Notes under the pieces: model-generated | Databases searched by the model: none | What the model saw: the letters and a program-made list of their open reading frames with translations, nothing else | What the model was told of the DNA's origin: nothing | Shown: positions 1,343 to 7,938 of the stretch, one piece after another | How positions within the stretch are numbered: position 1 is the first letter of the stretch | Layout of the letters: the number at the start of each line of letters is the position of its first letter | Program-made: the position numbers and the translations under genes | From: a virus | Taxonomy: Duplodnaviria > Heunggongvirae > Uroviricota > Caudoviricetes | DNA: 8,235 bases | Direction: 5' to 3' (one strand) | IMG/VR virus record: IMGVR_UViG_2651869696_000011

Positions 1343-2661
1343 TGGAGATTAACCGAAGAGTTTCATTTGATGATGTCTCTGGGTTTTCTGCTTTTATTAA
1401 AGATGTAGTGAATCTAAATAGATCTGCCTTTAAATCTTTAATGGCAGCGTTAAAAATAATTAGTGATTCAAAAGAATCATTGTCAACCAACTTTGACCTG
1501 ACTTATTCCATGTTAGTCTATGCCTTGGAGTCTTTGTCTCAAAGAAATGATAACTATAAGTCTGATTGGGATGACTACGATCAAAAAACCAGAGGTGAAT
1601 TAGAGTCTGTATTTGAGCATATGCCTGGTGAGGATGTTTGTAAAATTAAATCAATACTTATTGAAGGCAAACAATTCAGATTACAAAAAAGGTTCAAAGA
1701 TTTTATACTGAAAAATCTTGAAGAAAATTATTTCAATGAAACAGAGAGATATCCAATCCGCTATAGCTTCCTTAGTAGAGCTTTAGATAATTTATACAAA
1801 ATCAGGTCTTCTTTTGTCCATGAGCTTAAGCCACTTGATGCAATGATCTCGAAAGCCTACAATCCTGTTGGTGATTGTCTGGTTCTTTTTGGCGAACCTC
1901 ACTTCAGTTACTCTGGATTGCTTCGACTTCTTCGCCATGTGATAATAAATTTTTGCCGTAAAAACTACAGTCAAAAAAGAGAGTATGTTAATTGGGTGAT
2001 GGAAACATCGGGTGTAATGGTTGCAGAGATATCTGCACAATATTGGCTCTGGAATGCAGACGGATTTACAGCTAAAAGTATAGCGAAGTGGTTTAGTGAA
2101 TACCTAAATATGTTAAATTTAGGCGAAGTCACTGATTTGCAGTCTATCATGGACAAAATTGAGATAATCTATGACCAATCCAAAAAAGAATATAAAAATG
2201 GGTTGTTGTATTTTTATTTCTTATATAACTTAATGCATAATGGAAATAAGGGTGAATGGCTTGAGTTTGCGAACAAGCGAAGTTCTATACTTGTTTGTGA
2301 TATATATTGGTATTCATGCTCTCCATATTTATATAAATCATTTACTAATGTTTCAAATGGTATTGCTGATATAAAAACATTGAGAAACTTTTTGTCTTGT
2401 TTTAACGAATATGATAAAAATAAATTTAAGCCAAATCGTTTAAATCTCCCTGCAATGACCGAAGTAATTATGTTGGCTTGCGCAGCAAATTCATTCTTCA
2501 GAATTGGAATGTATCAAGACTATGTTTTAATGGGCAATAGAGCGATGAGAGAAATTGCTTCAGTAAAAGATGTATTTTATTATATAAAAGAACGATTAAG
2601 TAATTCACAACTTATTGAATTGGACGAGTGCTTGAGATTGTATAGAAAAAAGGGGGGCTAA
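1342..2661 (+). CDS. Hypothetical protein (439 aa), second gene of the cargo operon; contains an Rx4H (HEPN-like) motif
   Basis: Long uninterrupted ORF with AT-rich codon usage. The only possible start before the first internal ATG (1441) is GTG at 1342, which overlaps the upstream stop (TAGTG) and has no clear SD, so the start is uncertain. The motif R-SSFV-H is at codons 155-160 (nt 1804-1821). Confidence 0.8.
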   Translation: MEINRRVSFDDVSGFSAFIKDVVNLNRSAFKSLMAALKIISDSKESLSTNFDLTYSMLVYALESLSQRNDNYKSDWDDYDQKTRGELESVFEHMPGEDVCKIKSILIEGKQFRLQKRFKDFILKNLEENYFNETERYPIRYSFLSRALDNLYKIRSSFVHELKPLDAMISKAYNPVGDCLVLFGEPHFSYSGLLRLLRHVIINFCRKNYSQKREYVNWVMETSGVMVAEISAQYWLWNADGFTAKSIAKWFSEYLNMLNLGEVTDLQSIMDKIEIIYDQSKKEYKNGLLYFYFLYNLMHNGNKGEWLEFANKRSSILVCDIYWYSCSPYLYKSFTNVSNGIADIKTLRNFLSCFNEYDKNKFKPNRLNLPAMTEVIMLACAANSFFRIGMYQDYVLMGNRAMREIASVKDVFYYIKERLSNSQLIELDECLRLYRKKGG

Positions 2662-2669
2662 CCCCTTTT
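2648..2669. terminator. Putative bidirectional terminator at the convergent junction of the cargo gene and the integrase
   Basis: 8-bp stem aaaagggg (2648-2655) / cccctttt (2662-2669) with the 6-nt loop ggctaa, A-tract on one side and ttttatttttaa on the other. Both stop codons (2659-2661 plus strand, 2658-2660 minus strand) lie in or beside the loop. Confidence 0.4.
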
Positions 2670-3854
2670 ATTTTTAACGTATTCACCCCACCAATCCATC
2701 AATTCAATTCGCTGCACGAGATAAGTAGAACGATTGTATGCTTTTCTAACTTCATTTTTATCACTGTGGGCTAAGGCAGACTCGATAACATCAGGATTTA
2801 ATCCAGCTTCATTCATGGCTGTACTTGCTATTGAACGTAATCCATGGGCAACTAATTTTCCGCCAAAACCAATACGTTTTAAAGCTGCATTTGCAGTCTG
2901 ACTGTTCATTGGTTTCTTTGGGTCATTCCGACTCGGAAAAACATATTCACGATGAGCACTAATAGGCTTCATCACATTAAGAATCTCTAATGCCTGAGAT
3001 GATAGAGGAATTATGTGTTCCCGTTTAGCCTTCATCCGTTCGGCAGGAATCGTCCAGAGCTTTGCATGAAGATCGATTTCTTCCCACCGAGTACTGGAGG
3101 CTTCAGAAGGGCGCACAAGAGTCAGGAGTTGCCATTCAATTAGACAGCGAGTCGGGATAGACAGATTTGACATGACTAAAGAACGCATCAGCTTTGGTAA
3201 TTCTTCAGGTCGAAGCGTCGGCATGTTTTGTTTTTTTGGCTTTTCGAAGGCCATGCCAACACCTGATGCTGGGTTTGCATCAATCAAGCCAGTGTTAACC
3301 GCATAAATCATTATTTCGTTAATGCGTTGCACCAGACGACGTACAGTCTCTAATGCCCCACGAGCTTTGACTGGCTCAAGTGCTTCGACCAATGTTCTAG
3401 CTTTGATCTGCTGAACGGGCATCTCACCAACGGCGGGGAATACATCTTTTTCCAATGAGCGCCAAATATCTTTTGCATAATCAGGGGTAACACTTTTGCT
3501 TTTGAGCTGAAACCAATTAGCGGCGACCGTCGAGAAAATACTGTCCTGTGCGATTTGCTGCTGTTCCTCTGCAATTTCAGCTTGAATTTGCGGGTCAATT
3601 CCGTTGGCTAACAAGGAAAGGTAATCCGCTCTTAAGCGTCGGGCGTCAGCAAGTGAAAGGGCTGGGAAGGCTCCTAGCCCCATCATTGTCCGTTGCTTTG
3701 TTGCCGGACGTTGATAACGGAAACGCCATAACTTCTTACCGTTCGTTTTAACGAGTAGAAAAAGACCATCGCCATCATGCAACGTTAGATCCTTTTCTAA
3801 CGCTTTAGCGCGCAGTACTTCTGTGTTGGTCAGGGGGCGTGTCGTTCTTGCCAA
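2658..3854 (-). CDS. int: P4-family tyrosine integrase (CP4-57 IntA-like), 398 aa
   Basis: N-terminus MARTTRPLT...DGDGLFLLV...LWRFRYQRP and C-terminal HGLRSIAST...ALAH...VRKAYNRSTYLVQR are characteristic of P4-type integrases. Its 5' end faces the ssrA-derived att core, the usual tRNA/tmRNA-int arrangement. Confidence 0.9.
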   Translation of the reverse strand: MARTTRPLTNTEVLRAKALEKDLTLHDGDGLFLLVKTNGKKLWRFRYQRPATKQRTMMGLGAFPALSLADARRLRADYLSLLANGIDPQIQAEIAEEQQQIAQDSIFSTVAANWFQLKSKSVTPDYAKDIWRSLEKDVFPAVGEMPVQQIKARTLVEALEPVKARGALETVRRLVQRINEIMIYAVNTGLIDANPASGVGMAFEKPKKQNMPTLRPEELPKLMRSLVMSNLSIPTRCLIEWQLLTLVRPSEASSTRWEEIDLHAKLWTIPAERMKAKREHIIPLSSQALEILNVMKPISAHREYVFPSRNDPKKPMNSQTANAALKRIGFGGKLVAHGLRSIASTAMNEAGLNPDVIESALAHSDKNEVRKAYNRSTYLVQRIELMDWWGEYVKNKRG

Positions 3855-3884
3855 TTTGGCCGCTCCTTCATGAATTGGTATACG

Positions 3885-3935
3885 CGTTTAGGTATACATC
3901 CTACCGTATACCTAAACGTATACCAATAATCACTG
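3885..3935. promoter_or_regulatory. Imperfect inverted repeat in the integrase leader (candidate operator or integrase/IHF binding sites)
   Basis: Arms ttggtatacgcgtttaggtatac (3885-3907) and gtatacctaaacgtataccaa (3915-3935) are reverse complements apart from a 2-nt cg insertion; gtatac half-sites recur four times. Lies 30-80 nt upstream of the integrase start codon. Confidence 0.45.
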
Positions 3936-3973
3936 GATTTAGCTGGATATCCTCGGACAACGGTAGACACAAA

Positions 3974-4005
3974 AAAGCCCGCAGAGCTTGTGCTATGCGG
4001 GCTTT
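3974..4005 (-). terminator. Rho-independent terminator (minus-strand sense) downstream of the tmRNA 3'-end copy
   Basis: Stem agcccgca (3976-3983) / tgcgggct (3996-4003) with a 12-nt loop; on the minus strand it is followed by a run of six T (complement of aaaaaa at 3971-3976). Confidence 0.5.
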
Positions 4006-4038
4006 CAGGATTTCTCCGGACGTATCCGGAAGAGCAAG

Positions 4039-4065
4039 TGGTGGAGCTGGCGGGAGTTGAACCCG
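4039..4065 (-). other. Attachment-site core: 27-nt copy of the ssrA (tmRNA) 3' end without the rest of the gene
   Basis: tggtggagctggcgggagttgaacccg is the reverse complement of the tmRNA 3' terminus (...CGGGUUCAACUCCCGCCAGCUCCACCA). The match breaks off at 4066 and the sequence to the right is an AT-rich protein-coding gene, so this is a partial att repeat, not a functional ssrA. Confidence 0.7.
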
Positions 4066-4103
4066 TGTCTGAAAAATATTAACCTGTTGTTTTAATTATA
4101 TAT

Positions 4104-4883
4104 TTATCTGAACATGGCGTTTGCGGCGCTTTTGCGTATCTTCTCTAGACCTTTTGTAGTCCATTTCTCTGGTACAGGTGTAAACCGTAGTGCAAAATCT
4201 GCCTCCATATTATCACCACTGAAACGTGCCACTCCACGTTCCAATTTTGTTTGCCAAGTGACTTTTTTAGTTTTACCCTCTATATCTTGATATTCAATAA
4301 TTAATTTTGGACCAGTGAATGATGAAGAACCGACTAATTTAAGTCTATGTGAAAGATATGCTATATTCAATAGAATATCAATTGCCGCGGTTGGTACAAA
4401 AATGTTTTTTGACTTCTTATCTATACTATATGGTAACGAAAAATCAATATCGTAAGGTGTCGATAAAGTATTGTACATATATACTTTTCTTTCTTTTATT
4501 ATTTTGAATATTCCATACTGGGAGTCGGTTGTAAAAGATTTATCTTCTTTTTTGAATTTTTTCGAAAACAACTCTAAATATAGATTTATGTTTTTTTTAT
4601 AATTAAAATCCCAATGATATCTAAGTGAAATTGCCGCCCCCAATCCTATGTTTGAAAATTTTGTTTGTGGAAGCGTAGGGGCTTGTAAGATATCAACATG
4701 AAAACCGTTGAAATCGTTAACATTCATCTTGATATTTAAAGTGTCTATCACTAAATTGGGTTTATAAGAGAGCCTTCTTTGAAATATCGTTAACCATATT
4801 GCATATAATGCAGCAATTGCTGAAATGAAAGTACCAACTGAAGATATGTAGGTGATTAGTTTGTCGAATGTAATTGTAATCAA
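4104..4883 (-). CDS. Hypothetical membrane-anchored protein (259 aa), a moron between integrase and att
   Basis: Strongly AT-rich ORF with a predicted N-terminal transmembrane helix (ITYISSVGTFISAIAALYAIWLTIF). The only start upstream of the first internal Met (codon 53) is TTG at 4881-4883, preceded by GGGGA at a 7-nt spacing. No family recognised. Confidence 0.65.
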   Translation of the reverse strand: MITITFDKLITYISSVGTFISAIAALYAIWLTIFQRRLSYKPNLVIDTLNIKMNVNDFNGFHVDILQAPTLPQTKFSNIGLGAAISLRYHWDFNYKKNINLYLELFSKKFKKEDKSFTTDSQYGIFKIIKERKVYMYNTLSTPYDIDFSLPYSIDKKSKNIFVPTAAIDILLNIAYLSHRLKLVGSSSFTGPKLIIEYQDIEGKTKKVTWQTKLERGVARFSGDNMEADFALRFTPVPEKWTTKGLEKIRKSAANAMFR

Positions 4884-4924: not shown

Positions 4925-6097
4925 TTAATTATGATTATGCAAATGATTTATCGATGTAAAGTTATCATACTCTTTAAGATACGAACCATAGTGCCTGAAA
5001 AGCATCTCCGGCCCTTTATGCCCCATTTGAGCTGCAAGCCAAAACAGGTTTGCTCCTCGGCTGATATGGCTGGTGGCGAATGTATGCCTGGTTTGATATG
5101 GGTTTCTGTAACGAATACCTGCTTTTCGCAATGTTGGCACCCATGCTTTTTTCCTAATTGCATCAGCACTTGCCCAAGGCTTATTGGTCTTTGGATCTTC
5201 AAAGACAGTAGCATCCTTCATGAATGTAAATGGCTTCTGATTTATCAGCGCCAACATTGCCTCTTCTGTCAGTTCAACTTTCCGAGTACCTGCTTTTGTC
5301 TTTGTCCCTTTGATAACACCGACAACACTTGCGCTCTGGACATGGGCAGTTTTTCCAACAAAGTCGATATCACGCCATCGAAGGGCACATAATTCAGAAC
5401 TACGCAGGCCTGTATGTATAGCGAACCGGAACAGATTTTCCCATTGTTTGTTTCCGGCTGCTGCTAGTAATGCATCAACTTCTGCTGGTGATAGCGGATC
5501 AACTACGTAGCTGCTTTCTGCTTCTGACTTATCACTTTGGTAGCGCGAAGCTGTTACTAACGATACGGGGTTAATTTGAAGTACCCCATCGGTCACGGCT
5601 TCATCAAGTGCTGACCGCAGGAAAGATAACTGGTTGCGAATGGTTTTTAAGGTCGTTTTCTGGCTTTGAATCCACGCTTTCAGGGTTGCTGGTGTTAATT
5701 CACTTGCAGGGCAAATGTGAAGTGAGGCTAACGCACTACGGCATTTTTTATAACCACCGATCGTGGATGGTGAAAGTTTCCTCGTTTCGCAGATTTCAAG
5801 GTATTCGTCCAGGTACATTTTTACCGTTTTGCCTGCAGCAGCATTACCAAAAATTTTCAAACGAGCAGAACGGGGAAAATATTCCGCATAAATGAATGTT
5901 CCCCTTTCGATCTTATTATGAATTTCGCCGAGTGTGCGCTCAGCGTATTTAATGTTCTTTGGTGTTACTTCCAGATTGGAAAGAGGCTCACGACATTTAA
6001 CTCCTTTGTAGGTGAAAGTTATATTGATCGTTTCGCCCTGGCGGTGTTTCCTGATTGTTACGCCGCGCGGTAGTTTGAGCAGTTTTGTCTGGCCCAT
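4925..6097 (-). CDS. int: Tyrosine integrase (390 aa)
   Basis: C-terminal catalytic region carries the recombinase residues (TGLRSSE; RHTFATSH; MGHKGPEMLFRHYGSY). ATG at 6095-6097 is preceded by gtgagg. Its 5' end overlaps the 3' end of the excisionase gene by 40 nt. Confidence 0.9.
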   Translation of the reverse strand: MGQTKLLKLPRGVTIRKHRQGETINITFTYKGVKCREPLSNLEVTPKNIKYAERTLGEIHNKIERGTFIYAEYFPRSARLKIFGNAAAGKTVKMYLDEYLEICETRKLSPSTIGGYKKCRSALASLHICPASELTPATLKAWIQSQKTTLKTIRNQLSFLRSALDEAVTDGVLQINPVSLVTASRYQSDKSEAESSYVVDPLSPAEVDALLAAAGNKQWENLFRFAIHTGLRSSELCALRWRDIDFVGKTAHVQSASVVGVIKGTKTKAGTRKVELTEEAMLALINQKPFTFMKDATVFEDPKTNKPWASADAIRKKAWVPTLRKAGIRYRNPYQTRHTFATSHISRGANLFWLAAQMGHKGPEMLFRHYGSYLKEYDNFTSINHLHNHN

Positions 6098-7545: not shown

Positions 7546-7740
7546 CTCCACAAAACAGAGAAGAACACCTGCGGTGACCGCCGCCCGGATGGATTGGGTT
7601 ATGAGCCCGTCGTCCGGTGATGCTCTTCTCTGTTTTGTAAAAAGAGCGGTACCAGCCGGAAGCAAGGGTACAAACTGGTACCGCCAGGACTACACACAGC
7701 ATAAAGTTGTGGTGCCGGGTGCCTCCCGGTGCCTGGCGAA
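7546..7740. other. GC-rich structured non-coding region (candidate ncRNA or cis-regulatory element)
   Basis: 15-bp inverted repeat acaaaacagagaaga (7550-7564) / tcttctctgttttgt (7624-7638) enclosing 59 nt. Perfect 10-bp hairpin gcggtaccag (7646-7655) / ctggtaccgc (7675-7684) with a 19-nt loop. Three ggtgcc direct repeats (7711-7733). The region is open in several frames on both strands with no RBS-supported ORF, which is typical of GC-rich non-coding DNA. Confidence 0.4.
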
Positions 7741-7938
7741 GGTTGCACACCAGACGGGTGGGTATCCACAGAAGGTCGACTGTCAGCCTCAACCTTAACC
7801 CGCGTGCGCTGAGCCGCATTCACCACAACGCTAAGGATTCTCTTTGGTTGAAAATACTTAGCTGTTATGTGCCTGTCTTTTCACCACTTCAGGCTCGGTG
7901 GTATCCTTTTAAGCCCGTATACATAAAAGGAAAATCAA

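Follow-up and report, generated by a model that had tools for sequence, protein, structure and literature searches.

Probable arm-type integrase-binding sites upstream of the integrase gene of a P4-like satellite at the ssrA 3′ end

A satellite and a lambdoid prophage in tandem at ssrA

The window, as we call the whole stretch of 8,235 nucleotides that was analyzed, contains in its left part the right-hand portion of a P4-like satellite prophage. The element has the P4-type satellite backbone (psu, delta, sid, Vis, and primase), with Psu encoded at 20–478 (PF07455, E = 4e-62). Between psu and int, 2 ORFs on the plus strand (953–2661) encode proteins of 129 and 439 amino acids, for which Pfam and NCBIfam gave no family and neither PADLOC nor NCBIfam a firm identity. 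The larger of these showed a weak ApeA-like N-terminal match in PADLOC (E = 3.6e-6). Elsewhere, the same position is occupied by a gene for a 567-aa hypothetical protein (Escherichia coli ATCC 8739), by DUF262 and HEPN genes (GPEC1209), or by Drt3b (GF3-3), so that it looks like a variable cargo or defense slot. The satellite ends in 3 features that are all encoded on the minus strand and are therefore co-oriented:

2658–3854, minus strand: int; 398-aa tyrosine integrase of the P4/CP4-57 type, with an arm-binding domain at the N terminus
3974–4005, minus strand: element-borne Rho-independent terminator, downstream of the ssrA 3′ end; found as a repeat-finder pair, by the terminator scan, and through Rfam IsrM, and conserved in relatives
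4039–4075, minus strand: copy of ~35 nt from the ssrA 3′ end, the att core; identical to ssrA from 4039 to ~4065, followed by 2 mismatches

The adjacent gene had been called a P4-type integrase in the original prediction, and Pfam agrees, detecting Arm-DNA-bind_3 (PF13356, residues 8–91, E = 9.6e-23), Phage_int_M (PF22022), and Phage_integrase (PF00589). The protein also matches NCBIfam PRK09692, and its residues 8–94 match PDB entries 3ju0 and 3jtz. It is 36% identical to P4 Int and 60% identical to CP4-57 IntA. Its start codon, a TTG at 3854, occupies a position that is conserved as ATG or GTG in relatives.

No intact tmRNA or tRNA gene was detected in the window by ARAGORN; what is present is the 3′ fragment of ssrA, with a weak Rfam match to tmRNA. 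As the same junction runs on into an intact ssrA gene adjoining smpB in E. coli ATCC 8739, KMi029, and GF3-3, we take this fragment to be the copy of the att core. To the right of 4075 lies a lambdoid prophage with an Arm-DNA-bind_2 integrase of its own (4925–6097, minus strand) and with DUF551 and YfdR-like early genes. E. coli GPEC1209, in which the junction matches at 98%, likewise has a lambdoid prophage adjoining the satellite where ATCC 8739 has ssrA, in a compared stretch that ends before ssrA. The satellite and the lambdoid prophage that meet at the ssrA 3′ copy represent a tandem occupation of ssrA.

Several further observations were made in this region. The lambdoid prophage of GPEC1209 continues with genes for a repressor, Q, lysis, and terminase. 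In the lambdoid prophage of the window, a full-length Rfam match to STnc100 was found at 7637–7851 (minus strand), which at 42.1 bits (E = 1.2e-6) falls below the gathering score of 47. Similarity to the 3′ end of IsrM, a Salmonella island sRNA, was seen in the terminator downstream of the ssrA 3′ copy. The corresponding Rfam match (3971–4078, minus strand) was not taken for an sRNA, scoring 31 bits against a gathering score of 376 and consisting essentially of the terminator stem-loop.

Four copies of a short motif upstream of int

Upstream of int, the repeat finder returned 2 pairs of fully complementary segments. The inner pair (3885–3897 and 3906–3918) spans 13 nt at 100% complementarity with 8 nt in between, and the outer pair (3874–3884 and 3917–3927), of 11 nt and also 100% complementary, lies flush with it save for a CG bulge. 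Together, they form an inverted repeat with arms at 3874–3897 and 3906–3927 and with 22 matched positions interrupted by this single 2-nt bulge. The first arm reads ATTGGTATACG, CG, TTTAGGTATAC; the second reads GTATACCTAAACGTATACCAAT. The original prediction had described a near-perfect 21/23-bp inverted repeat at 3885–3935, built from GTATAC half-sites with a CG insertion and centered about 55 nt upstream of the integrase start. The repeat was recovered with its half-sites, of which there are 4, and with the insertion at 3885–3886, but it had been placed ~10 nt too far to the right, missing the outer left half-site. Its center, at ~3900.5, was measured at ~47 nt upstream of the int TTG.

The arms resolve into 4 copies of a unit of ~11 bp with the consensus WTTRGGTATAC, which on the int strand appear as 2 direct copies 12 bp apart, followed by 2 inverted copies. 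These and the associated features are as follows, in the order in which they are met on the int strand:

3934–3958, minus strand: 3 RTCCRR direct repeats in 10-bp phase, located between the terminator and site 1 and reading GTCCGAG, ATCCAG, and ATCCAG along the int strand
3917–3927, minus strand: site 1, ATTGGTATACG on the int strand; outer right arm, holding the predicted -35 hexamer
3921–3926, minus strand: predicted -35 hexamer, TTGGTA, inside site 1
3905–3916, minus strand: site 2, TTTAGGTATACG on the int strand; inner right arm, repeating site 1 in the same orientation with 12-bp spacing
3898–3903, minus strand: TAGGAT, the predicted -10 hexamer; part of the 8 bp that separate the arms, with a 17-bp spacer to the -35 hexamer
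3887–3897, plus strand: site 3, TTTAGGTATAC on the plus strand, inverted relative to sites 1 and 2; inner left arm, perfect in the window and degenerate in most relatives
3885–3886, no strand: CG dinucleotide that makes the arms unequal (spacing of 14 bp between sites 3 and 4, of 12 bp between sites 1 and 2)
3874–3884, plus strand: site 4, ATTGGTATACG on the plus strand, inverted; outer left arm, just upstream of the int ribosome-binding site
3863–3867, minus strand: Shine-Dalgarno sequence AGGAG, 8 nt before the int TTG, as read from the sequence; a purine-rich block is conserved there in relatives

Written out on the int strand, the ssrA core is followed by 112 bp that hold the terminator and the 3 RTCCRR repeats, then by site 1 (ATTGGTATACG), site 2 (TTTAGGTATACG), the gap GTAGGAT, site 3 (GTATACCTAAA, inverted), CG, site 4 (CGTATACCAAT, inverted), 6 nt, AGGAG, 8 nt, and TTG. 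The 4 sites (3874–3927) are therefore separated by 112 bp from the ssrA-derived core (4039–4075), to whose sequence their motif is unrelated.

The clustering of the motif is pronounced. GTATAC occurs 4 times within 46 bp (at 3878, 3892, 3906, and 3918), where 1.0 copy is expected in the whole 8,235-bp window. With a fifth copy at 7917, outside int, exact matches in the window total 5, a count that was reached in none of 200 shuffles. The 13-bp inner pair is the longest short-loop inverted repeat of the window and was equaled in 1 of 100 dinucleotide shuffles, in a test that scored this pair alone and ignored the adjoining 11-bp outer pair. As single-stranded DNA, the repeat region folds at -18.4 kcal/mol (z = -6.9), with none of 200 shuffles folding as well.

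Interleaved with the sites is a conserved promoter-like pair, TTGGTA-17-TAnnnT, and from the ssrA terminator to int there is no other promoter-like element. In the 59 distinct upstream regions of relatives (see below), the columns of the -10 hexamer read T (58/59), A (59/59), 2 variable positions, A or C, and T (59/59). TTGG in the -35 hexamer is invariant or nearly so, with class C reading TTGGCC. The promoter scan called no promoter in the window between 3700 and 4200, TTGGTA-17-TAGGAT scoring 8/12. In relatives, it called TTGGTA-17-TATAAT (10/12, locus L031) and TTGGTA-17-TATACT (9/12, locus L033) at the homologous position, and no other promoter. Based on the conservation of the hexamers and on these calls, we propose that this element is the int promoter; the terminator just upstream means that int needs a promoter within ~110 bp. 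In the resulting layout, the -35 hexamer would lie in site 1, the spacer would coincide with site 2, the -10 hexamer would lie in the gap, and transcription would start within site 3, at ~3889–3892 on the minus strand. As sites 1 and 2 would cover the -35 hexamer and the spacer, and sites 3 and 4 the predicted start and the leader, occupancy by Int should block RNA polymerase. Binding of Int to these sites would thus most likely repress int transcription.

The RTCCRR repeats on the core side of site 1 are conserved across all classes of arm sites, and similar motifs occur in P4 (GTTGTCCG...AAATCCGG) and in CP4-57. They are plausible candidates for binding sites of the excisionase (Vis/AlpA). 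A match to the IHF consensus picked out by eye (AATCCAGTGATTA, ~3928–3940, minus strand) was dropped, as class B has AATCCAGAGAAAA there and the match is not conserved. On the other side of the cluster, an out-of-frame ATG (3871–3869) directly after site 4 opens an ORF of 13 codons (3829–3871, minus strand) overlapping the start of int. An ATG out of frame with int is found there in class-B relatives too, and the annotated int ATG of P4 has the corresponding place, right behind the inverted repeat.

Copies on the far arm and in relatives

The window ends before the far end of its own satellite, and the far arm was examined in E. coli records and at tandem junctions inside the retrieved loci. 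The element of E. coli ATCC 8739 is 100% identical to the window over 3840–3975. At its far end, beside the primase/crr end, it carries ATTGGTATACG ATTAGGTATACA, the only other exact tandem GGTATAC pair in 17.5 kb. This pair, around 1146248–1146274 of NZ_CP022959, lies 54 bp from TTCAAACTCCGCCAGCC, a degenerate copy of the ssrA core, which is also the distance found in P4. Similarly, GPEC1209, which shares the tandem-prophage arrangement of the window, has the same far-end pair at 54 bp from a core copy. In E. coli KMi029, both arms of a class-B element show GGTACAC, and the far pair is once more 54 bp from the core. Within 270 bp of Kluyvera sichuanensis sequence (locus L041, 1210–1480, on the same contig as locus L007), a far arm with GGTATAC is followed by a core copy and by an int arm with GGTACAC. 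This contig carries 2 P4-like elements of different arm-site classes in tandem, and the mixed junction indicates that the motif belongs to the element rather than to the locus. GGTATAC tandem pairs were also seen upstream of the match in loci L058 and L080.

Comparison with the int upstream regions of CP4-57-like and P4-like elements, which the original prediction had suggested, revealed the same layout in P4, in CP4-57, and in 59 distinct Enterobacterales regions. The latter came from an integrase scan with one genome per species, which yielded 80 loci; the 59 distinct intact upstream regions share the architecture. By the core of the motif, loci fall into the classes GGTATAC (34 loci), GGTACAC (25), and GGCCTAC (6), with class cores TATAC, TACAC, and CCTAC. 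The repeat is thus present in homologous elements, but it is sites 1, 2, and 4 that are conserved and not the near-perfect palindrome. The same heptamer recurs in these 3 sites of one locus in 53–55 of the 59 distinct regions and across the 3 core classes: the heptamer of site 2 equals that of site 1 in 53, and the core of site 4 equals that of site 1 in 55. Site 3 matches the site 1 core of its own locus exactly in only 15 of the 59, suggesting that the fourth site may be dispensable. The near-perfect palindrome is peculiar to the window's clade and results from its intact fourth site.

The number of inverted copies varies further. More distant integrases (47–55% identical; loci L074 and L079) are preceded by 2 direct copies and 1 inverted copy of unrelated motifs before the start codon. 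Three Pectobacterium loci (L044, L047, and L049) have, ~30–50 nt upstream of int, 1 or 2 additional inverted copies (TGTATACCAAT) that separate site 4 from the ribosome-binding site, so that the int-proximal inverted sites range from 1 (P4 and CP4-57) to 4. The 136-bp stretch at 3840–3975 has a match in 440 of 5,426 complete E. coli genomes, and related copies occur in many genera of the Enterobacterales, all adjoining an ssrA-type terminator.

The consensus integrases of the classes are 63–67% identical over residues 1–95, compared to 82–96% in the catalytic domain, and 17 of the 19 class-diagnostic residues lie within residues 1–67. In the sequences compared, motif class therefore tracks the N-terminal arm-binding domain of the integrase and not the excisionase Vis. 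Specifically, the Vis proteins of P4 and of the ATCC 8739 element share 99% identity, while the repeats of the 2 elements are unrelated (GGTATAC versus GGGGGCA), which argues against Vis as the reader of the arm sites. A role of Vis/AlpA at the RTCCRR repeats would fit this near-identity. The loci are phylogenetically related, so the class counts do not represent independent events, and the link between motif class and N-terminal domain could partly reflect physical linkage or shared ancestry. Excision would join the 2 arms and the 5′ part of int into a contiguous stretch of the circle, which could be exchanged as one block. As a modest gain, the classes amount to a natural allelic series: changes of 1–3 bases in the core of the sites go together with substitutions that lie solely in the N-terminal domain. 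Such a series could serve to decode how this type of arm-binding domain reads DNA, or to engineer orthogonal integrase/attP pairs.

Readings of the repeat and known systems

A symmetric repeat beside a gene start can be read in several ways. One is that it acts through nucleic-acid structure, either as a DNA cruciform or as a hairpin in the RNA of read-through or int transcripts, with effects on termination, stability, or translation, and not as a set of protein-binding sites. Besides the DNA fold given above, the region folds as RNA at -28.8 kcal/mol, and hairpin potential is kept in all classes (mean MFE ~-25 kcal/mol, z ~-8). The pair counts also show covariation (88% of cells paired, 9 pairs in which both partners changed, and a score higher than in any of 500 shuffles), so that the degeneracy of site 3 does not disprove a conserved hairpin. 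However, inverted copies of one binding motif give the same covariation signal. A hairpin requires complementarity between the arms only, leaving the heptamer shared by sites 1 and 2 (53/59) unexplained, as well as the far-arm copies ~10 kb away in the prophage. Moreover, the inner helix is less well kept (78.9% paired, with 11–25 of 46 distinct rows unpaired at 6 of the 11 pairs), and site 2 stays at consensus while site 3 drifts, so that this drift is not compensated. The stem is A+T-rich, no T-run follows it, and the terminator scan calls no terminator at the repeat; without a U-tract after the stem, the repeat is not a terminator. Rfam gave no match over 3874–3927, even at E up to 1. Finally, with the predicted start inside site 3, int mRNA would lack the 5′ arm of the hairpin. 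Given the identity of the direct repeats, the far-arm copies, the lack of a U-tract, and the predicted start inside the repeat, we consider a structural role improbable.

About as poorly placed is the possibility that the repeat is a palindromic operator, read not by Int but by an HTH excisionase/regulator of the Vis/AlpA family or by another dimeric repressor. A symmetric palindrome beside a promoter-like element would suit such a protein, and for P4, both Vis and Int have been reported to repress int (Piazzolla et al. 2006, cited in PMC2951348). Nonetheless, an operator would be expected to follow its regulator, and here the near-identical Vis proteins of P4 and ATCC 8739 go with unrelated repeats, while motif class follows the N-terminal domain of the integrase instead. 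Nor would a palindromic operator lead one to expect direct copies in tandem on the far arm, at the distance seen in P4, and the separate, better-conserved RTCCRR repeats with their 10-bp phase (3934–3958) form a more natural target for Vis. We therefore think it slightly less probable still that Vis or a similar repressor is the reader.

Very unlikely is the reading that the repeat is, or is the fossil of, a transcriptional operator for Int only, without a role in recombination. It would account for the overlap with the predicted promoter and has precedents in the autorepression by Int of KplE1 and P4, as far as these are treated in PMC2951348. The matching tandem sites on the far arm, however, are distant from any int promoter and lie at a P4-like distance from the core, and they make sense only for assembly of an intasome. 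The elements also appear to be mobile, with related copies across many genera, all beside an ssrA-type terminator. A functionless chance palindrome, for which it might speak that 1 of 100 shuffles gave a perfect 13-bp inverted repeat with a short loop, is practically negligible and already refuted by the comparative data, considering the adjoining 11-bp pair, the fourfold clustering of GTATAC, and the 59 distinct regions from many genera in which the sites are conserved and switch class in concert.

We thus consider it highly likely that the repeat is a cluster of arm-type integrase-binding sites, located on the int-proximal attachment arm of a P4-like satellite that is inserted in the ssrA 3′ end, and probably serving as an operator for int autorepression as well. 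The N-terminal arm-binding domain of the element's own Int would bind the 4 copies of WTTRGGTATAC, while its C-terminal domains would bind the ssrA-derived core 112 bp away. Together with the tandem pair on the other arm, the int-side cluster would build the intasome for integration and excision. The same binding of Int would repress int, as reported for Pint of P4 and PintS of KplE1. The original prediction had offered an operator for autoregulation or arm-type sites inherited from attP. These options are not exclusive: the comparative data argue strongly for arm-type sites, and we infer the operator function from the position of the predicted promoter among them.

The arm-site layout has already been described for P4, and in that sense the repeat is real but ordinary. 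It adds little in terms of mechanism, repeating the pattern of P4 and KplE1, in which the int promoter is embedded in arm-type sites. For annotation, it marks the int-proximal attachment arm of a common family of ssrA-inserting P4-like satellites, and it helps to set element boundaries and to resolve tandem arrays. More tentatively, the 3 classes of arm sites, with their matched N-terminal domains and one shared core site, might form a diversified “addressing” system that keeps satellites that compete for ssrA, and are stacked there in tandem, recombinationally orthogonal. We put this forward as a possibility that we hold to be rather unlikely. Under such a system, each Int would assemble an intasome on the arms of its own element only, and tandem neighbors, such as the 2 elements of K. 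sichuanensis, would excise independently, without co-excision or mutual deletion. The four-site palindrome of the window's clade would then be a derived, tighter autorepression operator, and the classes would constitute a natural recognition code for the DUF4102-type arm-binding domain.

Among known systems, the closest is P4. Its GenBank record (NC_001609) annotates 12-bp “attP arm sequence repeat” features as a tandem pair at 3942–3965 and an inverted copy at 3915–3926 that abuts or overlaps the int start, followed by the core at 4078–4097 and a second tandem pair at 4151–4174. Upstream of int, P4 reads ATTGGGGGCATA ATTGGGGGCATC ... ATGTGCCCCCAA ATG, the tandem pair being ATTGGGGGCATA ATTGGGGGCATC. 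The order on the int strand is the same as in the satellites described here, running from a tandem pair over 54 bp to the core, and from there over ~112 bp to a direct pair with 12-bp spacing, an inverted copy, and the int start. On the int side, the first site lies 113 bp from the core in P4, compared to 112 bp in the window; each unit begins with ATTGG, and the satellite backbone is shared. The core of the motif, on the other hand, is GGGGGCA in P4 and GGTATAC in the window, and P4 has 1 inverted copy where the window has 2, which accounts for the near-perfect palindrome of the latter. P4 also has an annotated repeat copy inside int (3621–3632), whereas the only other exact GTATAC of the window, at 7917, lies outside int when exact copies are counted. 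The core site of P4 is a leucine tRNA gene, rather than the ssrA 3′ end. The attP arms and int promoter of P4 are the subject of work that we cite through later papers (Pierson & Kahn 1987; Piazzolla et al. 2006).

CP4-57 shares with the window the ssrA 3′-end target, the element-borne terminator, and the co-orientation of these features with int. In E. coli K-12, the region upstream of intA reads TTTTAGGCCCAT TGATAGGCCCAA ... TGGGCCTAAA before the ribosome-binding site, with a motif of its own, AGGCCCA. It thus has 2 direct copies at 12-bp spacing and 1 inverted copy, as in the general layout. It differs in its motif (TTTTAGGCCCA), in having only this 1 inverted copy, and in the wider spacing of this copy from site 2. 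CP4-57 is, moreover, a larger cryptic prophage and not a P4-type satellite. A paper on the Shewanella element CP4So contained nothing on Int sites.

For KplE1, negative autoregulation by the integrase has been demonstrated experimentally at attL/PintS (Panis et al. 2010, PMC2951348). According to the same paper, autorepression occurs where the int promoter overlaps an att arm, and it is predicted for pairs of a tRNA gene followed by a co-oriented int gene. As in the layout proposed here, the KplE1 int promoter lies inside the att arm, arm-type Int sites and excisionase sites overlap the promoter, and the tRNA gene and int are co-oriented. The 2 elements differ in integrase family, target (argW in KplE1), motif, and number of sites, and the regulation of the window's element is predicted only.

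The attP site of phage lambda (P1, P2, and P′1–P′3) is served by a heterobivalent integrase whose N-terminal domain binds the arms. Both arms carry short repeated sites, in both orientations, and the excisionase sites lie between an arm site and the core. The element in the window resembles lambda in the type of integrase and in having repeated arm sites in both orientations. It differs in the spacing and number of the sites, and in that the int promoters of lambda are not known to overlap attP. The domains that would read the sites differ as well, since the DUF4102/PF13356-type arm-binding domain has an extra strand and helix compared to the lambda fold variant (PMC8138268).
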